Positions 1 to 17,868 of a stretch of 19,423 nucleotides of DNA are shown here, one piece after another (the stretch's first letter is position 1; each line of letters begins with the position of its first letter). The position numbers were made by a program, and so were the translations under genes. Source of the stretch: Promethearchaeota archaeon (GTDB taxonomy: Archaea > Asgardarchaeota > Lokiarchaeia > Sigyniarchaeales > SOKP01). Under the pieces are notes generated by a model. That model had not been told where the DNA came from. It saw nothing but the letters and a program-made list of their open reading frames with translations, and searched no databases. Location of the stretch: assembly GCA_016926735.1 (NCBI GenBank), contig JAFGOA010000183.1, positions 1 to 19,423 of the forward strand, given 5' to 3'.

Positions 1-170
1 AATCTTATCCTATAAATATATATTTTATGAAATTTTGTTAAATTAGAACTTGAAACCAAAATATGAATTTAGAAGATAATCTAATTCTATTTATTAAAAG
101 AATTTAAATTAAAAATACTATAATTAATCTATTAAAAAATAATTAAAAATTAAAAAAAAAAGATATAATA

Positions 171-620
171 ATGGAAGATCCCAAAAAAGAGCAAGATCCT
201 AAAAAATCCATAACAGAAGGATTTGAGAATTTCTTATCAGATTTACAAAACAGGGTTAAAAATTTCCAAAATTCTCTTTTAGAGCAACATAGAAAAGGAA
301 TAGAAAGATGGAATCAAAATCAAGAAAGAATTAAAGATTTTTTTCAAAATTCAAAAAAGAAATTTGATAATCAAATAACAATTTGGAAACAAGACTTTAA
401 GAAAAAACAAATCGAAACTAAAGAACAATGGGAACTTACAAAACAAAAAATAAGTCAAGATTATCAAAATTGGCAAGAGAAGATAAAAAAAGATTTTAAC
501 TCTGGTTTAAAAAAATGGAATAGATTTTGGATAAAGGGTTCATTTATTTTCTTATTATTTATGACCCCAATTTTAATTGTTATTATCATCATAGCAATTG
601 CGATTAATCTGATTCAATAA
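171..620 (+). CDS. Hypothetical helical/coiled-coil protein with a single C-terminal transmembrane anchor
   Basis: 149-aa ORF with a K/Q/E-rich amphipathic body and regularly spaced Trp/Phe, ending in the hydrophobic stretch FIFLLFMTPILIVIIIIAIAINLI. Confidence 0.7.
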   Translation: MEDPKKEQDPKKSITEGFENFLSDLQNRVKNFQNSLLEQHRKGIERWNQNQERIKDFFQNSKKKFDNQITIWKQDFKKKQIETKEQWELTKQKISQDYQNWQEKIKKDFNSGLKKWNRFWIKGSFIFLLFMTPILIVIIIIAIAINLIQ

Positions 621-747
621 TCTCTCTGACTTTAATTTTATTTAGATCTTTTATGGAAGATTATTTTATTAATTAATTTCCTATCTTAACAAAAAAATCT
701 TTAATGATTTTACGTTATAAATTATTAATAAAAATTATTTTCGAACT

Positions 748-1536
748 ATGCGTACATTTCCGAGTAATATAAAGAGAATTGTTATTAAAGTTAGTACTCA
801 AATGATTACAGATGGAGTTGCAGAAATATTTCATAATAAGATACATTCTTTTGTAAAAGAAGTTGCAGATCTTATAACTTATGGATATGAAATAATTATT
901 GTATCAAGTGGTGCTATTGGTTCTGGCTTAGCAAAATTAGGTTTAAAACAAAGACCAAAGGATTTTAAAGAATTACAAGCATTGTCAGCAGTAGGACAAA
1001 TTTATTTAATGAAGATATATCAAGAAGAATTTAATAAGTATAATTTAAATATAGGACAGATCCTTCTTTCTGCAGATGATATGAAAGATTCAGCTCGCCG
1101 TGCAAACACTAGAAATACTTTAGAGGTTCTTTTAAAAAAAGGAATTGTACCTATATTAAATGAAAATGATTCGGTTGCAATTGAGGAACTAAGTTATGGA
1201 GATAATGATCGTCTATCTGGGTTAGTCTCAATTCTCCTTTTTGTAGATCTATTGATAATTTTAACAGATGTAAAGGGATTATATGATAAAAATCCAAAAA
1301 TTAATAATGAAGCAAAATTGATTACTCAAGTTGATAAAATAGATCAAAAATTAGATGATCTTGTAGAAGATATAGATGGCGGTATAACTTTTGGTGGAAT
1401 GAAGTCAAAAATAAATATAATAAAGAAACTTGTTAATATAGGTATCCCCGCTATAATAAGTAGCTATGATGGAATTTCATTAAAAGATCTATTAGATGGA
1501 AAAGAAATTGGTACATACTTCCTTCCTCAAAAATAA
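748..1536 (+). CDS. proB: Glutamate 5-kinase (short form without PUA domain)
   Basis: Motifs RIVIK, IVSSGAI, QALSAVGQ, PILNENDSV, GDNDRLS, LTDVKGLY and GGMKSK; 262 aa; directly upstream of proA. Confidence 0.95.
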   Translation: MRTFPSNIKRIVIKVSTQMITDGVAEIFHNKIHSFVKEVADLITYGYEIIIVSSGAIGSGLAKLGLKQRPKDFKELQALSAVGQIYLMKIYQEEFNKYNLNIGQILLSADDMKDSARRANTRNTLEVLLKKGIVPILNENDSVAIEELSYGDNDRLSGLVSILLFVDLLIILTDVKGLYDKNPKINNEAKLITQVDKIDQKLDDLVEDIDGGITFGGMKSKINIIKKLVNIGIPAIISSYDGISLKDLLDGKEIGTYFLPQK

Positions 1537-1631
1537 ATTTTATAGAATATAAATCTCAAAGTATAACAAAAATTTTATTAATTAATCATTTAAAGACCTT
1601 AAAAAGAAAATTAATATAAGAGCGCAAAAAT

Positions 1632-2888
1632 ATGACAATACAATCTGAAATGCAAAATATTGGAAGGAATGCACAGAATGCTGCATTCATTCTAAAAAAC
1701 ATATCAACTGATAAAAAAAATAAAGCATTATTAAGGATGGCTGATGAGCTAGAAAAAAATGTTGAAATCATAATTATTGCTAATAATAAAGATATTGAAA
1801 ATTCTAAAATTCGAAATCTAGAACAACCAAAAATAGATAGACTCAAATTGAATTCAAATAAAATTCTTAAAATAGCCAGTGGTCTAAGAGACATTGCAAA
1901 TCAACCTGATCCTATCAATGAAATAATTTCTATGTGGAGAAGGCCAAATGGTATGGATATTGGCCAGATTCGTGTACCATTAGGTGTCATTGGTATTATC
2001 TATGAATCAAGACCTAATGTAACTGCTGATGCAACTGGACTCGCAATAAAATCAGGAAATGCAATTTTATTAAGGGGTGGAAGTGAAGCAATTAATTCAA
2101 ATATCGCAATAGCTGAAATATTACATAATGCAGCAACTTCGGAAGGATTACCGGAAAATTGCATTCAAATCATTAATAATACAAACAGGGAATACGTGGA
2201 TGAAATGCTTAAATTAACGAAATATATTGATGTTATCATTCCAAGAGGAGGAGCATCCCTTATCCAAAAAGTAATCAGAAATTCACAAGTGCCAACAATT
2301 GAAACAGGAATTGGAATTGTAAGTATGTTTATAAATTATGATGCAGATTATGAGATGGCAGACAGACTTATAATTAATTCTAAATGTTCTTATCCTGCTG
2401 TGTGTAATGCATTAGATAAATTATTAATACATGAGAAAATAAAAGATGAATTTATACCACGAATTGTATCTTTACTTAAGAAAAATAATGTAGAAGTTAG
2501 AGGAGATCAAGATGTTAAAAATATTGTTCCAGATATTATATTAGCCTCAGAGGAGGATTGGAGTTCGGAATATCTTTCTCTTAAAATATGTATAAAAATA
2601 GTCAAAGATATTGATCATGCAATAAAAATTATAACAAAATACGACTCTAAACATACAGAATCTATCATTACCAATAATTATGATGATGCTCGTAGATTTT
2701 TAGATGAAGTTGATGCTGCTGCTGTATATGTAAATGCCGCTACAAGATTGACTGATGGAGGCGTTTTTGGATTGGGATCCGAAATTGGAATTTCTACTCA
2801 AAAACTTCATGCACGAGGTCCTATGGGCCTAAAGCAATTAACATCAACAAAATATATTATTTATGGAAATGGACAGATTAGAGAATAA
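1632..2888 (+). CDS. proA: Gamma-glutamyl phosphate reductase (glutamate-5-semialdehyde dehydrogenase)
   Basis: Motifs RVPLGVIGIIYESRPNVT, KSGNAILLRGGSEA, IPRGG, catalytic VCNA and GSEIGISTQKLHARGPMGL. Confidence 0.97.
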   Translation: MTIQSEMQNIGRNAQNAAFILKNISTDKKNKALLRMADELEKNVEIIIIANNKDIENSKIRNLEQPKIDRLKLNSNKILKIASGLRDIANQPDPINEIISMWRRPNGMDIGQIRVPLGVIGIIYESRPNVTADATGLAIKSGNAILLRGGSEAINSNIAIAEILHNAATSEGLPENCIQIINNTNREYVDEMLKLTKYIDVIIPRGGASLIQKVIRNSQVPTIETGIGIVSMFINYDADYEMADRLIINSKCSYPAVCNALDKLLIHEKIKDEFIPRIVSLLKKNNVEVRGDQDVKNIVPDIILASEEDWSSEYLSLKICIKIVKDIDHAIKIITKYDSKHTESIITNNYDDARRFLDEVDAAAVYVNAATRLTDGGVFGLGSEIGISTQKLHARGPMGLKQLTSTKYIIYGNGQIRE

Positions 2889-4427: not shown

Positions 4428-5555
4428 TTATTTTAAATTCTCTTTTTTACTATAGTATTTTATCGCAGCTGCATAGTTCTTTGTTGGAATAATTTTTGGA
4501 TTACTGCGAAAGCTACTTGAAATAGTAGAATTACATCTTGAACATAATTGGTTATTTTTCATCCAATCTTTAAATTCATCCGCATGTGCTGGATAATTAC
4601 AATTTGGGCATAAAACTATACCACGACGTTGATCTTCTGGATATTTTGGTAAACTGAAACAGAATATACATTTAAAATCTTCTAATGATAATATAGTTGC
4701 ACTGGGTTTTAATCGTTCTATTTCTTTAATTCTTGCACTTTTACTTTTATTCACTTTTGGTGTAGGTTTCTGTCTGTTTATTGATCTAGTAGGTTTTGGT
4801 CTACTTGTAGTAGTTGTTCTTGGTTTAGGTCGTGTTCTTGGTTTTGGTTTTGATCTTTGTTTAGATTGGCGTTGTTGTCGTGGTTGTCGGGTCGAGATTG
4901 ATTGAATTTGACTTCTTCTCCGTTGGAGGGCGTCCTGAGATATGCTTGATGACCTTTTGGATTTTTTAATAAATCCATAAATAATAATTAGAAGAGAAAA
5001 AATAATAAATAAAAATAAGACAAGTCCAATATGAGTATAGTTAGGATAGATATCATAGAAGCTTTTATTCTCCGAAATAAGAACTATAAAAATAATATTT
5101 AAAATCAAGATAAAAAATAAAATTAAAACACAAAATTTACGTGCTTTTATAGATGTAGTCTTATAGATATATATTACTTCATATTTTTTCATACTTGTAT
5201 ATATGTATGAAAGACCAGCCATTAATAGGGGAAATGATAGAAAAAAAATCCATGGGTTCAAGAAGAAATAGAAATCTGAATCTTGAAACCAGTTCCAATT
5301 AAATAAATCCGTATAATATCCTATGTATAAATAAAGTAACCCTGTAAATATAACTGCCAGAACAAAAAATGATGTATTATGAGGTGAATTATAATCTTTA
5401 AATTTTCTGACTTTTTCTCTATATTTTATGATAAATAATAACCAAAATCCAATAAATATCCATGAAAAAAATATATTTAATGATGATTCTCCAACACCAT
5501 GTACTATACCTATCAAGAAACAAATAAAAAAAATAATAATAGATGATTTTTTAAT
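4428..5555 (-). CDS. Polytopic membrane protein (~6 TM) with basic linker and C-terminal RING-variant Zn finger; candidate membrane-bound E3 ligase
   Basis: Six hydrophobic segments, an R/K/P/Q/S/T-rich linker, then C-x2-C-x16-C-x2-C-x4-H-x2-E-x10-C-x2-C with the RING helix Trp. It is the last gene of the Ubl-E1-E2-JAMM cluster. The ORF track starts at TTG 5516, but the frame is open to an ATT at 5555 preceded by GGTGA, so the start is uncertain. Confidence 0.75.
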   Translation of the reverse strand: MKKSSIIIFFICFLIGIVHGVGESSLNIFFSWIFIGFWLLFIIKYREKVRKFKDYNSPHNTSFFVLAVIFTGLLYLYIGYYTDLFNWNWFQDSDFYFFLNPWIFFLSFPLLMAGLSYIYTSMKKYEVIYIYKTTSIKARKFCVLILFFILILNIIFIVLISENKSFYDIYPNYTHIGLVLFLFIIFSLLIIIYGFIKKSKRSSSISQDALQRRRSQIQSISTRQPRQQRQSKQRSKPKPRTRPKPRTTTTSRPKPTRSINRQKPTPKVNKSKSARIKEIERLKPSATILSLEDFKCIFCFSLPKYPEDQRRGIVLCPNCNYPAHADEFKDWMKNNQLCSRCNSTISSSFRSNPKIIPTKNYAAAIKYYSKKENLK

Positions 5556-5578: not shown

Positions 5579-6373
5579 TTATTCTTCATCATACTCTAAA
5601 AAGAGTGCTTTTCCTTCAGTTAAAGGATTAACAAATTTTAAAAACTCTGGTAAGACACTTACATCAACAGCTCCCTTTATAATAAAAGGTATTTCATTCC
5701 AGGTACCCATTTCTAAATTAGATCTAAATATTTTGAATCCAAAAGATGTTCCATTAATTTGATATGGATCTATAACGAGAGCAACAGCCTTATTCCATAA
5801 TTTTTGATAGACTGATTGAGTACCTACATCTTCTTCACTCATAAATAATCCGTAAGAAGGATGGGAATGATACCATCCACATATAAATTGTTTTCTCTTC
5901 TTTATTTCATTAAAAGCTCGAGCATGATTATCTGGATTTCGAATTTGAACAGTTATAGCTGTTCCATGTCCCATTGGATAAGCATCTTCTATATTTAAAA
6001 TATTATTTTTATCTAATTTTCCTGCAAGAAGCCCAATAACTTCAACCCACTTCTCTCTTGGAATCTTTGAATTTGCATACTTCAATGCATGTGTCGCTGT
6101 TTTTAATATTGTCTGTACTGAAATAGTACATTCATAATTTTCTGGTTGTTTTGAAATATATTCTTTTTGTGGTTTAACAACTTTCTTTTTTACTGCTGAT
6201 TCTGAAGAAATCTTTTTATCCAATAAAGAAATTACTTCATCAGTCAAAATATCTTCTTTCTCAGCAATCTCTTTATAGATATCTTGTAAAAGTTCATTTT
6301 TAACTTTATCAATAATTTTTTTCTTCAAATCATTTTTAATTGCATTGATATAAGATTCTTCTTTATCTGCCAT
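5579..6373 (-). CDS. JAMM/MPN+ metallo-isopeptidase (Rpn11/CSN5-like) with N-terminal helical extension
   Basis: EVIGLLAG (catalytic Glu), GWYHSHPSYGLFMSEED (H-x-H-x7-S-x2-D) and AVALVIDP; GAGGA RBS upstream. Confidence 0.93.
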   Translation of the reverse strand: MADKEESYINAIKNDLKKKIIDKVKNELLQDIYKEIAEKEDILTDEVISLLDKKISSESAVKKKVVKPQKEYISKQPENYECTISVQTILKTATHALKYANSKIPREKWVEVIGLLAGKLDKNNILNIEDAYPMGHGTAITVQIRNPDNHARAFNEIKKRKQFICGWYHSHPSYGLFMSEEDVGTQSVYQKLWNKAVALVIDPYQINGTSFGFKIFRSNLEMGTWNEIPFIIKGAVDVSVLPEFLKFVNPLTEGKALFLEYDEE

Positions 6374-6390: not shown

Positions 6391-6918
6391 TTACCATTTT
6401 TGATTTGCATATTTTTTAACTAGATGTACTACTTTTTTCTCAAATTTCTTTGGATCATCAATCATTTCTAATGCTGCCTTTTTATTGAAAACATCAGTAG
6501 GATTAACAAATTTACCTCTAGTATTTAACATAGCTTGAATTGCTTGTATTACTGTTTTAATTGTTTTAGATGGGCTCCATCCACCTTTTGTTCCTACTAA
6601 ACTAGGATCAATAAGAGCTAAACATATATTTCTCTCTCCAGGATATTCAGATGGTTTAGGCCAGAAATTAGGATGCCATATTGCAGTATGAATTCTCATA
6701 AAAGGAGGATTCTTAGGATAATCGTGAGGATATTTAATTTCAAGTTTAAATAATCCCTTTTCAAATACAGTTCCCTTAGGACCTACAAGAGTAACTGCTA
6801 AATGATCTATGCTTTTATCTTTTGGATTAAAAGGTTTTAATTGACATATTACACCCTCTTTCAGTAATTTTTTTAGGGTTGCAAAATCCTGAGAGATTCT
6901 ATTGGTTCTCAAACTCAT
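6391..6918 (-). CDS. Ubiquitin-conjugating enzyme E2 (UBC fold)
   Basis: GPKGTVFEKGLF, YPHDYPKNPP, IWHPN, catalytic ICL (Cys99) and WSP. Confidence 0.95.
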   Translation of the reverse strand: MSLRTNRISQDFATLKKLLKEGVICQLKPFNPKDKSIDHLAVTLVGPKGTVFEKGLFKLEIKYPHDYPKNPPFMRIHTAIWHPNFWPKPSEYPGERNICLALIDPSLVGTKGGWSPSKTIKTVIQAIQAMLNTRGKFVNPTDVFNKKAALEMIDDPKKFEKKVVHLVKKYANQKW

Positions 6919-7087: not shown

Positions 7088-8323
7088 TTAATTCAGATTT
7101 AAATTTACTAAGATTTCTCCTTCTTCAAAACCAGCTACAATAACTAATTCTAAATTTCTCAAATTATTTTCAAGTATAGTTTTATCTGTATCAAGAATGT
7201 TTATATTATTAAAATCCAATACTGTCATTATTGGTTCCATATCTTCATTTAATTTATATCCTTTTTGTTTTAATATATTTATAATACATTCAGCTGACTC
7301 GTTTGAATGTACTAAAATATCTTCTCTTATTACATTTTCCCCGCATTGTATGCATACTTTACTTCGCTTCTTCTCAATCTGGTAAAATCTCATAGTCATA
7401 GCATTTAAAATCATATATGATTTTATTGGTTCTCCTAAAGCATCATTATTTTTAAGCCAATGAAGAATTTTTATTGCTTCATGTGATTGCAAAGCAGATA
7501 TTATTGAATTTATTGTGATTATTCCAGGATCATGACGATCAAGGATTTTAATAATTTCTGATTTTGAAAATCCAGGTTCAAAATGATATTCATTAACTAG
7601 AGCATTAGCTTCTTTCTGAAGGAATTCAATTGTATCGATATTTTTTATATTTGGTTCATTATCATATTTTTCTTGATAGAGGAGATTCGCTTTAAATAAA
7701 CAATGTACCCTTTTTCTTGGAATACCAACAACTGTACATGCTGCCATATCATCATTCTCTGCGGCAGGTAAGGGATTACATTCATAACACGCATTTTCAT
7801 ATGGATAAATTGTATACATATGTCCATGATATCCAGATACACCTCCATCAACCAAAGGTTTTTTAAATCTAATAGCTTGAGCATTCAAATTGAGCCGAGC
7901 ATTCATCGAATCTAACCCTCCTATAATAATATCTGCCTCTTTGTATAAGGAAGGATCAATACGTTCTAAAGAGGAATTATACGCATCAATAGTGATATAT
8001 GGATTAATTTGTCTTAATTTTTTAGCAGCAGCTAAAGCTTTAGGTTCACCAATCTCAGCATCAACAAACAATAATTGGCGATTTAGATTTGAAAATTCTA
8101 TTGTGTCTAAATCAACAAGTATCAGTTTACCCACGCCTACCATTGCTAAATTCTTAGCAATTTCACATCCTAATCCTCCAATACCCGCAATTAAAACAGT
8201 TGAATTCTTAACAATCTCTTGAGACCATCCTTCAAGTCGAAATTGTCGATCATACAATTCTCTTTCTTTTTCAGAAAGATTTTCGCTGAAAAAATTCGAA
8301 TCTTCATTCATAAAAATACCCAT
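7088..8323 (-). CDS. Ubiquitin-like activating enzyme E1 (UBA3/UBA2-like) with catalytic-Cys domain and C-terminal ubiquitin-fold domain
   Basis: YDRQ, GIGGLG, DLDTIEFSNLNRQ, LDSMNAR, Zn pairs CYEC and CIQC, ACTVVGIPR...HC (catalytic Cys196), and an ~80-aa beta-grasp-like C-terminus. Confidence 0.92.
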   Translation of the reverse strand: MGIFMNEDSNFFSENLSEKERELYDRQFRLEGWSQEIVKNSTVLIAGIGGLGCEIAKNLAMVGVGKLILVDLDTIEFSNLNRQLLFVDAEIGEPKALAAAKKLRQINPYITIDAYNSSLERIDPSLYKEADIIIGGLDSMNARLNLNAQAIRFKKPLVDGGVSGYHGHMYTIYPYENACYECNPLPAAENDDMAACTVVGIPRKRVHCLFKANLLYQEKYDNEPNIKNIDTIEFLQKEANALVNEYHFEPGFSKSEIIKILDRHDPGIITINSIISALQSHEAIKILHWLKNNDALGEPIKSYMILNAMTMRFYQIEKKRSKVCIQCGENVIREDILVHSNESAECIINILKQKGYKLNEDMEPIMTVLDFNNINILDTDKTILENNLRNLELVIVAGFEEGEILVNLNLN

Positions 8324-8397: not shown

Positions 8398-8778
8398 TTA
8401 ACATTTACCAGCTGTACTAGCTGGTATAAGTAAGACTTCATCTCCATCTTCAACATTGTACTCTCTTAAAGGTCTTCCTTCATCCATTGTAACTCCTCCA
8501 GAGGATAAATGAAAATCTGAAGGATTTAGACCAAAAATATTTCCAACAGTGTTTTTAATATCTCCTATTCTATTAGCATCATCAACAATTAATTTTTGTT
8601 TCTTTTCTCCAGGACCTATTGTTGAGGTAAAAAATAATGATAATTTTTTTCCTCCACTAGGACCTTTCACCATAGGTGTCTTTGATTGGATTGTTGGGGT
8701 TGATGGTGCTGGAGTCTTAGATATAGGATCATCTAGCTCTTCATCAAAATCTTCATCAAATTCATCATCAAAACTCAT
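8398..8778 (-). CDS. Ubiquitin-like (beta-grasp) modifier with acidic N-terminal extension, C-terminus ...STAG-KC
   Basis: IGDIKNTV...FGLNPSDFHLSSGGVTMDEGRPLREYNVEDGDEVLLIPASTAG aligns gap-free with ubiquitin residues 23-76; first gene of the E1/E2/JAMM/RING cluster. Confidence 0.88.
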   Translation of the reverse strand: MSFDDEFDEDFDEELDDPISKTPAPSTPTIQSKTPMVKGPSGGKKLSLFFTSTIGPGEKKQKLIVDDANRIGDIKNTVGNIFGLNPSDFHLSSGGVTMDEGRPLREYNVEDGDEVLLIPASTAGKC

Positions 8779-12518: not shown

Positions 12519-14573
12519 CTAATAATCTTTATATTCTGTTTCTTCAAATAAATTAGAACCTGGATCAAGGAATGCATTTTGACATGAAGGACAACTGTTA
12601 TATTTTGAAATCCAGAATGCTACACATAAATAATGGTAGACAGCATCACAAAACGGACATTTGATAAGTTGATCCTTAACAAAATTAATCTGTTTACGAC
12701 ATATTCCACATTGAATATTTGAAACTTCAATTCCTTCTCTAATTTTTACTTTTTTTTCTACTATATTTTCCAAATTCTTTAATTCTTGATGATAATTTTT
12801 GTTTTGTTCATTTATATGATTTATTTTTGCCTTAATTTCTATTATTCTTTCTTTTAATTCATCTTCGGATAATTTTTCTGCTAAATAATTAGACAATACA
12901 TAATTGAGTGGTATCTCTTTTCCATTCGAATCTTTGTAAGAAATTTCTGTGATATCTTCAAAAAGCGATTCTTCTTTTCCAATTAAATCCCCAAAATTCT
13001 TATAAAGTTTGCTTAAAAATTGAGAGAGTAAAAACCCAACTTGTTGTCTTTTTCTATTAAAATTATCTTCCCATTCTTTTATTATGTGATATTGATCTAT
13101 TTCTTTTTCCTTGAAATCATCTAATTTATTAGATACTTTTTTTTTTATTTCATTAATTTTAATCATATATTCATTAATAATATCATTGATCTCTTTTAGA
13201 GGAGTAAATTTATCAGATAAAATTTCCGCTGTTTTATCTCGATATTCATTGACTAAAATATTCAATTCTTGAATTTTCTTATCAATAAAGCTCTTTATTC
13301 CTTCCTTTACTTTTTCATTTTTATTTATATTTAAATATTCTATAAATTCTTCTTTCCTCCTGCTAATATCTTCTAAATAAATATCATATAAATCTAATAA
13401 TGAATTTAAAATATCTTGGAAGGGATCTAAGAATATTTCAAGTTCTTTAGTGTATTTTTTGATATTTTCTATTTTATTCTTTAATAAATTCATCTTTTCT
13501 GAATATTGGGTTCTAATTTCTTCAATTTTATCTAAATCTTTTATTTCAGATAATATAAATTGATAATAATTTTCAAGACCATTTGTATAATCATCTATTA
13601 ATATAGGAAAAAAATGAGAAATCTTTTCTTTTAACAATTGTTCATAATGCTTTTTTTCTTGCTCTTTTTCTTTTGTATAATGATATTCATCAAACTCTTG
13701 AATATCTTCAATAATAGCTTTTAATTCGAGGAGTATTGAATTTTTAATTAGTGGTTTTAAAAAAATTTTCAAATCTTTTTTTATTTCTTTTCTTTCAATA
13801 ATATTATGAAACTCCTGTTTGGTATTCTCAAATAAGATATTATTTTTGTAGAGAAGATAAAATAACTCTTGTAAAAACTTTTGGTTCTCATTTTTAACAT
13901 GATTAACATAATTATAAATAGTAATAAAAGTAAAATTTTCTATATTCTCCTTCTTTTTTGATTTTATATCTTTATTCTCAATATCATTTTGTATAAATTC
14001 GTATAAACTCATGATTTCTTTCCATATTAAAAGATTCTCAGGATTTTTCATAATTTCAAATTCAAGATTTTTTATTTTTTGAATTTCTATCCACAAATAT
14101 GAAGGATCTTGAAATAAAGGAGCTTCTTTTCCTATCAAGCTTTCGATTTTTATTTTAGATTGAGATAATCTTTCAGATATTTCTGAGACTTTTGATATAT
14201 AATTAATTAAATATTGAGAATCTTTTAGAAATCGAATTGAATTTTGAGCATTCATTTTTAAATTCAATAAATTATTTGAAATAATATTGATCTCTTCTGT
14301 TATTTCTGATTTTAGTTTTGGATATTCATCATAAATACCAAATTTTGGTTTCTTAGATGTTATCAAGTAAGAATCAATAAAAATATCTAGATTTTTTAGA
14401 TAATCACTACTCAAATCCAATAATTTTATTGGAAATTTATTTTCAATGAATAATTGAAATTCAGATTCTTCAATCTTGCCCTCTTTATACTTTAAAATAT
14501 TTTCTTTAGTTTTCAACATTTCTTCCTTGGTGAAACCCACAATATTATCAAAAGAATTATTAACTAACTTCAA
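12519..14573 (-). CDS. Large alpha-helical/coiled-coil protein with C-terminal C4HC3 RING; candidate soluble E3 ligase
   Basis: About 620 aa of helical K/E-rich sequence followed by CGIC-x13-CPFC-x4-H-x2-C-x3-W-x6-CPSC; TTG start. Confidence 0.8.
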   Translation of the reverse strand: MKLVNNSFDNIVGFTKEEMLKTKENILKYKEGKIEESEFQLFIENKFPIKLLDLSSDYLKNLDIFIDSYLITSKKPKFGIYDEYPKLKSEITEEINIISNNLLNLKMNAQNSIRFLKDSQYLINYISKVSEISERLSQSKIKIESLIGKEAPLFQDPSYLWIEIQKIKNLEFEIMKNPENLLIWKEIMSLYEFIQNDIENKDIKSKKKENIENFTFITIYNYVNHVKNENQKFLQELFYLLYKNNILFENTKQEFHNIIERKEIKKDLKIFLKPLIKNSILLELKAIIEDIQEFDEYHYTKEKEQEKKHYEQLLKEKISHFFPILIDDYTNGLENYYQFILSEIKDLDKIEEIRTQYSEKMNLLKNKIENIKKYTKELEIFLDPFQDILNSLLDLYDIYLEDISRRKEEFIEYLNINKNEKVKEGIKSFIDKKIQELNILVNEYRDKTAEILSDKFTPLKEINDIINEYMIKINEIKKKVSNKLDDFKEKEIDQYHIIKEWEDNFNRKRQQVGFLLSQFLSKLYKNFGDLIGKEESLFEDITEISYKDSNGKEIPLNYVLSNYLAEKLSEDELKERIIEIKAKINHINEQNKNYHQELKNLENIVEKKVKIREGIEVSNIQCGICRKQINFVKDQLIKCPFCDAVYHYLCVAFWISKYNSCPSCQNAFLDPGSNLFEETEYKDY

Positions 14574-14697: not shown

Positions 14698-15312
14698 TTA
14701 TTCTCCTAACTCTTCAATATCTATATGCTTTTCTTTAGATCCATCCTTAGTTATAACAAGAATATCAATACCATTACCAGACATAATATCTCTTTTCATA
14801 GCATTTCGGATGATTTTTTCTACTAATTTCTCTCCTTGTGCTACAGTTAAATCTGGTTTATATTCTGCTTCTAATAATCCTATAGACATAAACATTCCTG
14901 TTCCTGCGACACCATAATCTTCAGGAATTAATGATCCAATAGCATCTAAAGTATATAATTTTGGTCCATCTTTATCCATACCAGCTACTACAAGATTAGT
15001 ATATAGAGGTGCCATTTTTCTAGAAAATAGATAGTTTGAAACTAATTTGGCTAAACTCTTTGTAGAAATTCTCTCTCTTGTGTCTAACTTATATAAATTT
15101 GCTTGTGCTCTTAAAATCTTAACAAGAATTTGGTAATCTCCTATAAGACCATAAGCTGCTAATCCAATATATTCAGTTATTTTAAAAACTTTTCGGGTTG
15201 ATTTATTTGATACAGTATAACCCCAAGTAGCACGATTATCATTTCCTAAAATAACTCCATCTTTACATTTTATTGCTACGCCACAAGCACCAGGAACGGT
15301 TATTTCTGTCAT
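14698..15312 (-). CDS. psmB: 20S proteasome beta subunit, predicted non-catalytic (Ala at the Thr1 position)
   Basis: GVAIKCKDGVILGNDNRAT, KVFKI, GLIGD, LDAIGS, GTG and RDIMSGNGID. The ATG at 15312 follows a GGAGA RBS and is preferred over TTG 15324. Confidence 0.93.
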   Translation of the reverse strand: MTEITVPGACGVAIKCKDGVILGNDNRATWGYTVSNKSTRKVFKITEYIGLAAYGLIGDYQILVKILRAQANLYKLDTRERISTKSLAKLVSNYLFSRKMAPLYTNLVVAGMDKDGPKLYTLDAIGSLIPEDYGVAGTGMFMSIGLLEAEYKPDLTVAQGEKLVEKIIRNAMKRDIMSGNGIDILVITKDGSKEKHIDIEELGE

Positions 15313-15897
15313 TCTTTTCTCCAATTATTTGATAGTAGAATACTTAAAAATAGATATTTTAATAAATAAGAATTTGATATTAAATTAATATTTTGTTATT
15401 ATTTGAAATAATTTGTCTAAAATACAAAAGAAAATAATTTCTAATTTCTTTTAATTTCAGACTAAGAAATTGATGTGAAACAATAAGGAACATTTTTATG
15501 AATTAACTAAATCTCGTAGTATAAAGGTTAAATTAATATTCTCTTTAAAAAAAAATAAAATTTTTAAATCTCAATTTTTTATAGAATTTTTTATTCAAGA
15601 TTGAATTGAAATGTTAAAAAAGTACTCATAGATGTTTTTTTGTTATATCTAATATGTAATTGATATTTTTATCAAAATAAAAATATAAATAAAAAAAATG
15701 GTCAACTTAAGGATCTTAATATCATTTTCTCCAATATCAAAATATCAATAATTACTGATTAAGATTAAATTATAGTTATTTCTCAGTTTTTTAGAGATAT
15801 AACCCATATACACCTACTATCTAATATATTATCCATAAATTTTTGTCGTAATTTTTTTTAATCTAACGTATTACTATCTTACCAATTAATCAATAAG

Positions 15898-16948: not shown

Positions 16949-17338
16949 ATGAAAGATATTATAAATAAAAAAAAGTCATCTCATTTCAATACATTTCTTG
17001 TTAGTGAATCAACTATTAAAAAAAAGAAAAAAATTTCCCATCTATATTTAAAATACGTACTTAGAAAAGCAATGTTCTATTTTACTATTTTCTTTATAAT
17101 AATATCGATGCTTTTTCTATTATCTCGATTGTATATTCAATTTAATATTGATGATATTTATTCATCATACACTATAGACGTAGGGTTTTTTGATGAAGAT
17201 TTACTCTTGGCAATGGAAGCAGAATTAGAGAGAATTATGGGTATTGGTAAACCTCTATGGGAAGCATATATTGATTTTATAATTCAAGTTTTTACGTTTG
17301 ATTTTGGCTCCACTCCACATTTAAATTATATTTTCTAA
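16949..17338 (+). CDS. Stand-alone DppB/OppB N-terminal-domain-like membrane protein, paralog 1
   Basis: LKYVLRK plus TM plus ELERIMGIGKPLWEAY...FDFGS resembles the N-terminus of peptide ABC permeases (KYILKR...GLDKPL..QY...GDFG.S); the permease core is absent. Confidence 0.65.
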   Translation: MKDIINKKKSSHFNTFLVSESTIKKKKKISHLYLKYVLRKAMFYFTIFFIIISMLFLLSRLYIQFNIDDIYSSYTIDVGFFDEDLLLAMEAELERIMGIGKPLWEAYIDFIIQVFTFDFGSTPHLNYIF

Positions 17339-17505: not shown

Positions 17506-17868
17506 ATGAAAACCTATGAAAATATCATAATTTCTTCTACTAATAAAAAATATGTTGAAAAAGAGAATAAATCTCACCATCTATTTTTAAAATATATAAT
17601 TAGAAAGACGGTGTTCTATTTTTCATTATTTTTCACCATTATTTCTGTGGTTTTCATTATATCTCGATTTTATATTCAAAATTATTATAATGATATTTTT
17701 CCACCCCGTTTTCAGCTTGATCCTGAGGATTATTTAATAGCAAGGGAATTAGAGCGAATTATGGGTATTAATAAACCTCTATGGCAAGCATATATTAATT
17801 TTATAATTCAAGTCTTTACGTTTGATTTTGGGCCGACTATAGCTTTGCCGGGTTATTATAATTTTTGA
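17506..17868 (+). CDS. Stand-alone DppB/OppB N-terminal-domain-like membrane protein, paralog 2
   Basis: LKYIIRK plus TM plus ELERIMGINKPLWQAY...FDFGP; tandem paralog of 16949-17338. Confidence 0.65.
   Translation: MKTYENIIISSTNKKYVEKENKSHHLFLKYIIRKTVFYFSLFFTIISVVFIISRFYIQNYYNDIFPPRFQLDPEDYLIARELERIMGINKPLWQAYINFIIQVFTFDFGPTIALPGYYNF

Follow-up and report, generated by a model that had tools for sequence, protein, structure and literature searches.

An E1-like enzyme of ubiquitin type and its operon in a Promethearchaeota archaeon

A cascade of E1, E2 and RING proteins from Caldiarchaeum has been reconstituted in vitro (Hennell James et al. 2017, PMC5654768). The E1-like enzyme of that cascade, described with the NEDD8 E1 as template, has an active Rossmann fold, a Cys domain, a zinc site and a C-terminal ubiquitin-like domain (UBL). 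Asgard gene clusters are included in Fig. 1 of the same paper, where the C-terminal UBL of the E1 is listed. A full ubiquitin cascade has also been noted in Asgard genomes (PMC9192718), and a review from 2024 restates the Caldiarchaeum system and describes the bacterial BilD pseudo-dimer (PMC11354881). The subject here is the gene at 7088-8323 on the minus strand of contig JAFGOA010000183.1 from a Promethearchaeota (Loki-type Asgard) archaeon; the whole stretch of DNA that was analysed, 19,423 nucleotides long, is called the window. Its product is very probably the E1 enzyme of a conjugation cascade of ubiquitin type. Its fold and domain order, the conservation of its catalytic and zinc residues, its operon, its predicted symmetric dimer and its separation from bona fide MoeB are described.

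Compared by description, the gene product is, like the E1s of the Caldiarchaeum and Asgard operons, a single chain of ThiF fold; an ATP loop rich in glycine, the zinc cysteines, a small Cys domain and a UBL at the C-terminus are common to both. The E1 gene lies beside genes for a ubiquitin-like protein, an E2, a RING-type protein and an Rpn11/JAMM protease in those operons as well. The differences are that the modifier here ends in Ala-Gly followed by a two-residue tail, and that the candidate ligase is a membrane protein. A sequence-only reading of the same DNA had described the gene product as a homodimeric E1 that combines in one chain features split between two subunits in eukaryotes. It read the architecture of this Asgard E1 rightly but overstated its novelty, since the family was published in 2017 (PMC5654768). 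The enzyme class is already known, and the window copy adds an instance and no new concept; it is part of the archaeal apparatus from which eukaryotic ubiquitylation is thought to have arisen.

Domain order and predicted fold

The open reading frame lies in AT-rich DNA (G+C 20-31% per 1-kb segment of the window). Its parts are as follows, where conservation refers to an alignment of 59 sequences that includes two UBA3-type proteins:

7088..8323, minus strand: gene for the E1-like ubiquitin-type activating enzyme, 411 amino acids (open reading frame and translation; Pfam ThiF, E 3.8e-59)
8231..8272, minus strand: N-terminal helix, residues 18-31, with Y24-D-R26-Q27 (motif position; R26 in at least 90% of the sequences; in the predicted dimer interface)
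7790..8221, minus strand: adenylation (Rossmann-like) core, part 1, residues 35-178, with G47/G49/G52, D71, D73, N79, Q83, K95, D138, R143 and N147 (all invariant, 59/59)
7778..7789, minus strand: first putative zinc CxxC, C179 and C182 (invariant, 59/59)
7715..7777, minus strand: crossover loop, residues 183-203, with the candidate catalytic Cys196 (invariant, 59/59, the two UBA3-type proteins included)
7529..7714, minus strand: helical Cys-domain insert, residues 204-265 (AlphaFold2 helices 205-220, 229-245 and 254-261)
7355..7528, minus strand: adenylation core, part 2, residues 266-323, with the main dimer-interface helix 269-290 (secondary structure; predicted interface 264-285 and 296-313)
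7343..7354, minus strand: second putative zinc CxxC, C324 and C327 (motif position; invariant, 59/59)
7091..7342, minus strand: predicted C-terminal ubiquitin-fold domain (UFD), residues 328-411 (isolated fold; best match the UBA3 UFD)

The motifs quoted in the sequence-only reading, which left the minus strand unstated, are all present in the translation. LYDRQFRL occupies residues 23-30 and GIGGLGC residues 47-53; CYEC at 179-182 is followed after 13 residues by CTVVGIPR (196-203) and after a further 3 by HC (207-208), and DKTILENNLRNLELVIVAG is found at 380-398. Cys196, the first residue of CTVVGIPR, has its codon at 7736-7738. A second CxxC, CIQC at 324-327, was overlooked in that reading and is invariant along with C179 and C182. 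The first ATG of the reading frame gives 411 amino acids, a database copy with a 100% match starts at Met5 and has 407, and most relatives align from residue 5 onward; the probable true start is Met5, at position 8311.

Besides the Pfam ThiF match, the protein finds UBA1 among the PDB sequences (E 2.7e-39), and of 8000 candidates that were scored 685 are homologues at E <= 0.001; such a resemblance lies far beyond chance. Relatives with 59-85% identity come from Promethearchaeota, Lokiarchaeota and Hodarchaeota and are annotated as ThiF-family proteins, and two close Promethearchaeota relatives carry the GenBank label "putative E1-like ubiquitin activating protein".

The AlphaFold2 model, built on the 59-sequence alignment, has a predicted local distance difference test score (pLDDT) of 89 and a predicted template modelling score (pTM) of 0.79. 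It is poorly defined only in residues 1-6 and in the Cys196 loop (186-199), where a pLDDT below 50 fits mobility. In a Foldseek comparison of the whole chain with the PDB, UBA3 comes first (E 8.8e-31, 413 columns), followed by SAE2/UBA2 and then by UBA1, UBA6 and UBA7; MoeB is 30th and ThiF 37th in the ranking. VIA-align superposes 382 residues over 12..411 on UBA3 (Z 29.7) and 369 residues on SAE2 (root mean square deviation, rmsd, 3.9 Å). Only chains of UBA3, SAE2 and UBA1 type match over the whole length; ThiF and MoeB cover the core alone, with Z 31 and rmsd 1.6-1.7 Å for about 230 core residues within 15..329. The insert 204-265 is covered by UBA3 and SAE2 and missing from the superpositions on MoeB and ThiF. 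The small helical insertion noticed from the letters thus has a counterpart in the model, with three helices in about 60 residues, and the statement that ThiF and MoeB enzymes are without both added domains agrees with their structures.

The order of core, CxxC, Cys loop, helical Cys domain, second CxxC and UFD is shared with UBA3 (PDB 2NVU, 3GZN, 1TT5, 1Y8X), at an identity of 24-28%. UBA3 differs in its partner, the inactive NAE1, and in the loss of the N-terminal Y-x-R-Q helix. In the E1 here the helix is retained and self-pairing is predicted; this E1 also lies outside the eukaryotic clade, and its UFD does not match Pfam E2_bind. With MoeB and ThiF (PDB 1JW9, 1ZUD) it shares the adenylation core, the predicted mode of homodimerization, the Y-x-R-Q helix, the zinc CxxC pairs and the crossover-loop cysteine, but these enzymes have neither the helical insert nor the UFD, and the match ends at about residue 329. 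BilD-type E1s and UBA1 resemble it in their active half, where they too have a helical Cys domain and a conserved cysteine (PMC11354881). They are single-chain pseudo-dimers in which an inactive and an active half are fused, whereas the E1 here has one repeat.

Because its core superposes best on ThiF and MoeB, the protein might instead activate a sulfur carrier in the manner of MoeB, ThiF and UbaA, or have a dual function as UbaA/Uba4 has; the added domains would then be accessory and the E2 step not obligatory. The best NCBIfam matches by E-value are MoeB, ThiF and UbaA models, which counts against an E1 of a conjugation cascade, and the loop and zinc cysteines are common to 16-18 of the 19 short MoeB/ThiF-like rows in the alignment described below. 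However, the NCBIfam scores are all far below the cut-offs (148.9 bits against 266 for the MoeB subfamily, 139.7 against 275 for ThiF and 111 against 450 for UbaA). The 411 residues do not fit the core-only architecture of about 250 amino acids of MoeB, ThiF and UbaA, no rhodanese domain is found in a Pfam scan, and the host genome holds a separate MoeB-like gene (locus L001; 220.6 bits to Pfam ThiF and 235.8 bits to a MoeB model). Conjugation cascades are characterized by features seen here, namely a UFD, a Cys-domain insert and neighbouring genes for E2 and JAMM, and a joint clade with bona fide MoeB is rejected by the tree test given below. A sulfur-carrier activator is consequently regarded as very improbable.

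The C-terminal domain had been read as a beta-grasp of ubiquitin fold, and this is what its predicted structure suggests. Residues 328-411, folded separately, reach pLDDT 93.6 and were compared with 48,161 chains without the Foldseek prefilter. The five best chains are all UFDs of E1 enzymes and cover 76-81 of the 84 residues: two full-length UBA3 chains and an isolated UBA3 domain (Z 10.1, 9.2 and 8.9; 81, 81 and 76 residues), of which the best has rmsd 2.3 Å, and SAE2 (Z 8.6 and 8.2; 79 and 76 residues). Ubiquitin and ubiquitin-like domains follow with Z 7-8 over 62-64 residues. Foldseek gives complexes of UBA3 and UBA2 UFDs with E2 as its top matches for the domain, which sits at a position in the chain equivalent to that of the UFDs of UBA3 and SAE2.

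None of the Pfam families E2_bind, UAE_UbL and E1_UFD matches the C-terminal domain even at E <= 1, an argument against a UFD, and it is therefore by its fold that the domain is assigned. The missing match, the short distance in Z to free ubiquitin and its relatives (7-8 against 8.2-10.1) and a C-terminal Pfam "ubiquitin" match in the distant single-chain relative P0143 could point to an intramolecular Ubl module with another role, for example filling the site for the modifier or binding the proteasome or ESCRT. Such a role is distinctly improbable, given that E1 UFDs are ahead of ubiquitin both in rank and in coverage, that the Foldseek matches are UFD-E2 complexes from the same chain position, and that a stable E1-E2 complex is reported for the Caldiarchaeum homologues (PMC5654768). 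Residues 328-411 have the fold of an E2-recruiting UFD, and the predicted structure suggests that they could dock an E2.

Conserved residues and class assignment

The invariant residues listed above would correspond to an ATP/Mg site, a site of four cysteines and a candidate catalytic cysteine. At least 90% of the 59 sequences also have R26, T197, P202, R203 and C208. Zinc binding and catalysis are suggested by the homologous positions of UBA3 and MoeB, and equivalent zinc and catalytic positions are drawn for the Caldiarchaeum E1 in Fig. 3 of PMC5654768. An active adenylation site within a single chain, as proposed in the sequence-only reading, is consistent with the invariance of the glycine loop, D71, N79, Q83, K95 and D138. 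The pattern CxxC...C-T...P-R...H-C, ascribed there to UBA3 and UBA2, recurs in the UBA3-type protein P0188 and the UBA2-type protein P0194, and Cys196 aligns with the cysteine of their C-T...P motif, at the start of the helical insert.

The key positions were also tabulated over an alignment of 81 rows, for which 150 distant representatives were used and groups were named by Pfam/NCBIfam content (SCCH/E1_UFD, UAE_UbL, E2_bind) and not by organism. "Short MoeB/ThiF-like" is a size label, as no scanned representative reached any NCBIfam cut-off, and the only rows near full-length MoeB models are P0186 and the MoeB-like gene of the host genome. The arginine of Y-x-R-Q is present in all 7 rows of the query family, in 16 of 17 other single-chain forms of about 410 amino acids, in 18 of 19 short MoeB/ThiF-like rows (the MoeB-like host gene included) and in 4/4 inactive domains of UBA1. 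It is found in 0/8 UBA2-type rows and 0/4 active domains of UBA1.

These counts do not bear out the view that YDRQ.RL is a feature of NAE1/SAE1 which is combined here with features of UBA3/UBA2. Because Y-x-R-Q is present in MoeB/ThiF-like, UBA1 inactive and query rows alike, it is ancestral to the whole superfamily; eukaryotes retained it in the inactive half and dropped it from the active half. The equivalent of Cys196 and the zinc cysteines are by the same comparison ancestral as well. The Y-x-R-Q helix and a live active site in one chain are the plain state of a MoeB-like homodimer, and the derived features of the E1 are the helical insert and the UFD only.

In a quick tree of the 81 rows (349 columns, mixture model), the query family (support 100, starred) falls inside a group of 25 rows of single-chain Cys-domain forms with support 86. 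A second tree has 43 hand-chosen rows (379 columns, LG+G4), 38 of the 81 having been dropped to make tests feasible. There the query belongs to a starred clade (96/94) of 14 single-chain Cys-domain E1s, another starred clade (100/99) holds the eukaryote-type active domains, and the bona fide MoeB pair is split from all else (100/99). A grouping with MoeB or ThiF, which the sequence-only reading had named as the outcome that would speak against it, is rejected for bona fide MoeB by the approximately unbiased (AU) test: constraining the query family and the MoeB pair to one clade costs 30.7 log-likelihood units (p-AU 0.0146).

A sister relation of this enzyme and the eukaryotic E1s is neither shown nor rejected by the trees. 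The backbone among the clades of the 43-row tree is a polytomy, no sister relation with the eukaryotic active domains is recovered, and uniting these with the archaeal clade costs 11.8 log-likelihood units and is not rejected (p-AU 0.125). Published trees report a close relation of archaeal and eukaryotic E1s (PMC5654768).

Predicted homodimer, second paralogue and fused forms

The suggestion of a homodimeric E1 agrees with the predicted structure of two copies, a symmetric homodimer with a score of 0.77 against 0.29 for the best control. In three runs at least 78% of the contacts agree, and the pLDDT of the partner is at least 78. The interface is symmetric: residues 22-27 and 29-31 touch 164-165 of the partner, and 264-285 and 296-313 also take part. 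When the score was calibrated, 20 of 30 solved homo-pairs but only 1 of 23 single chains attained the mark. Two points temper this result. The calibration holds only roughly here because an alignment made for this analysis was used, and the score may partly reflect the memory that the model has of solved dimers of MoeB, ThiF and E1. The prediction should be taken as a likeness to such dimers and not as proof of one. The main text of PMC5654768 contains the word "homodimer" 0 times, and no paper on the oligomeric state of an Asgard E1 was found in a limited literature search.

R26 lies in the predicted interface and is a candidate for an "arginine finger" acting in trans. This role of the arginine is known from structures of MoeB and E1 enzymes.

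Canonical E1s have an inactive adenylation partner. The E1 here has one repeat, retains the Y-x-R-Q helix and is predicted to form a homodimer. The host genome, which is 99% complete, has four genes of the ThiF family: the E1, the MoeB-like gene, a ThiF-like gene of 284 amino acids and a second eukaryote-like E1 paralogue. In the first three, translated fully or in part, a glycine loop and an ATP motif of the type D.D..E.SNL.RQ are seen; the second paralogue has the ATP motif, and its glycine loop is broken by an insert of 30 nucleotides. As the translations show the ATP motif, no inactive (degenerate) ThiF partner was recognised among these four genes.

A partner might nevertheless be sought in the second paralogue, which lies on contig C108 (locus L003, about 727-2350, minus strand) and has enlarged inserts. 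The two proteins could form an asymmetric heterodimer in which one gives the arginine finger and the other catalysis, an analogue of NAE1-UBA3 made of two active chains. A paralogue with the signature CxxC...ACT..G.PR...HC and a UFD-like tail is present in 31/31 genomes searched (G000 included), it falls in one starred clade with the E1, and asymmetric pairing has evolved in the lineage, as fused inactive/active forms of this type occur in related genomes. On the other hand, the two genes are unlinked and the E1 is part of a complete operon of its own; it keeps both the Y-x-R-Q helix and a full active site, as expected of a symmetric homodimer, and the homodimer is predicted with confidence. 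A heterodimer is for these reasons judged distinctly improbable, and self-pairing of the E1 is preferred.

The insert in the second paralogue is in frame, carries two stop codons and lies within the glycine ATP loop at about 2186-2215 of L003. It is found in 4/4 genomes of the genus (L003, L040, L041, L042) and is absent from the seven orthologues read from other genera. The stops are TAG and TAA in genome G002, and TAA and TAA in the other genomes of the genus. An inner hairpin of 9 bp is maintained by compensatory changes. The flanks, drawn by hand, give a bulge of 3 nucleotides (UAA), a helix of 4 bp (GCGU/ACGU), a second bulge of 3 nucleotides (AAG) and a weak outer helix, and cleavage of both bulges behind their second nucleotide would give a continuous reading frame again. 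Of 18 drawn pairs, 14-16 hold in each genome, with covariation from only 3 distinct sequences. RNAfold does not find the 91 nucleotides around the insert stabler than shuffles (z = +0.74).

With its hand-drawn bulge-helix-bulge (BHB) pairing, as defined in a preprint (10.64898/2026.10.13.758758), the insert is a candidate for a mini-intron of tRNA-endonuclease type in an mRNA. The gene cbf5 is a precedent for a BHB intron in a protein gene (PMC2738675). A paper on a protein-coding BHB intron in Asgard archaea was not among the matches listed in a limited literature search. Alternatively, the second paralogue may be a pseudogene throughout the genus. Three metatranscriptome runs of the same study gave 0 contigs for this stretch, which favours neither reading.

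The fused E1s are represented by the 800-residue protein P0124 and by two genes measured from stop to stop: L043 989-3403 on the minus strand (genome G027), 804 codons, and L044 614-3571 on the minus strand (genome G021), 985 codons. Their genomes belong to a related family of the same order, and tandem matches are also found in G023 and G025. The N-terminal repeat keeps Y-A-R-Q, but its glycine loop, its ATP motif and its cysteines for zinc and catalysis are gone, whereas the C-terminal repeat has lost Y-x-R-Q and keeps all catalytic motifs and a UFD-like tail. Judged from these motifs, the fused Asgard E1 is a pseudo-dimer like UBA1 and BilD, with the same division of labour as between the inactive and active halves in eukaryotes. 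The C-terminal half groups with the Asgard clade of the second paralogue (95, starred, in the 81-row tree and 100/98 in the 43-row tree), and the N-terminal half is a long branch of uncertain placement in the same wider archaeal group. Since both halves fall in the archaeal clade, the tree favours an independent duplication within the lineage. The fused form does not occur at the window locus, and a limited literature search found no description of a fused inactive/active E1 in Asgard archaea. These fused E1s and the insert of 30 nucleotides seem less expected than the E1 of the window itself.

If a UBA3-like chain with Cys domain and UFD works as a MoeB-style homodimer, the added domains would have come first in the evolution of E1 enzymes and the inactive partner later, an order of events that publications on the operons of Caldiarchaeum and Asgard archaea already imply. 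It is possible, though doubtful, that the homodimeric E1 is a surviving stage from before the duplication that gave the canonical E1s, that Asgard archaea record later stages as well, and that it was in Asgard archaea that the split into inactive and active halves came about, be it as the root of the eukaryotic one or as an independent replay of it.

The operon and neighbouring genes

The E1 gene is the second of five co-directional genes, the other four being:

8398..8778, minus strand: ubiquitin-like modifier (Ubl) precursor, 126 amino acids, ending in ...STAG-KC (Pfam ubiquitin 7e-05, below the family cut-off)
6391..6918, minus strand: E2 ubiquitin-conjugating enzyme, 175 amino acids, with an HPN...C motif (Pfam UQ_con 2.8e-26)
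5579..6373, minus strand: JAMM/Rpn11-like metalloprotease, 264 amino acids, with an HSHPS...D motif (Pfam JAB 3.7e-14)
4428..5516, minus strand: multi-pass membrane protein with a C-terminal Cys-rich zinc finger, a weak candidate for an E3 (translation; weak Pfam matches)

The order Ubl-E1-E2 is kept in 20/20 related Promethearchaeota loci, in all of which the E2 gene adjoins that of the E1. The full order of five genes is kept in 16 of the 20, and the other four loci run off their contigs; these counts omit the fragments L024 and L026 and ignore L027, a bacterial ThiF match of 31% identity. The membrane protein is present at the equivalent place in 16/16 loci that extend far enough, at 28-73% identity. 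It has a basic linker rich in Pro, Arg and Lys, and its matches to zf-RING_16 (0.017), zf_UBZ (0.0058) and Prok-RING_1 (0.18) are weak, as are those to zinc ribbons.

The Ubl is the presumed substrate of the E1. Two of its properties sit uneasily with this role: it scores 22.9-24.5 bits against the Pfam ubiquitin cut-off of 25.4, and it ends in Ala-Gly and not in Gly-Gly. The orthologues (loci L005 to L025) have ...STAG in 20/20 cases; ten stop there and ten add 1-3 variable residues. With a reactive end of Ala-Gly and the added KC, the Ubl of the window would therefore need trimming. About 45 residues at the N-terminus of the Ubl form an arm that is acidic and of low complexity.

The following course of events may be proposed from what is known of UBA3, SAE2 and MoeB and from the Caldiarchaeum biochemistry. 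Two identical E1 chains would pair through their ThiF-fold cores as in MoeB and ThiF, and the N-terminal helix of each chain (Y24-x-R26-Q27) would reach the ATP site of the partner. Trimming of the neighbouring Ubl, for which the JAMM protease of the operon is the likeliest agent, would expose its Ala-Gly end, and the trimmed Ubl would be adenylated at each active site. It would next be accepted as a thioester by Cys196, which lies in a mobile loop where the small helical Cys domain begins. The UFD might then dock the E2 of the operon so that the Ubl moves to the E2 cysteine, and RING-like proteins could direct it to targets. The E1 offers residues by which these steps can be tested, namely R26, C196, the C179/C182/C324/C327 site and the UFD at 328-411.

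A further candidate E3 is encoded about 4 kb from the operon, at 12519-14573 on the minus strand. This protein of 684 amino acids is rich in coiled coil and has a C-terminal RING-H2-like finger, with a match to zf-RING_2 (2.7e-04) that is below the cut-off. It adjoins a gene for a proteasome beta-type subunit at 14698-15324 on the minus strand (Pfam Proteasome 2.3e-51). Two small paralogous neighbours on the plus strand, at 16949-17338 (129 amino acids) and 17506-17868 (120 amino acids), share an N-terminal membrane segment and are nearly identical in a C-terminal stretch, ...RIMGI.KPLW.AYI.FIIQVFTFDFG....

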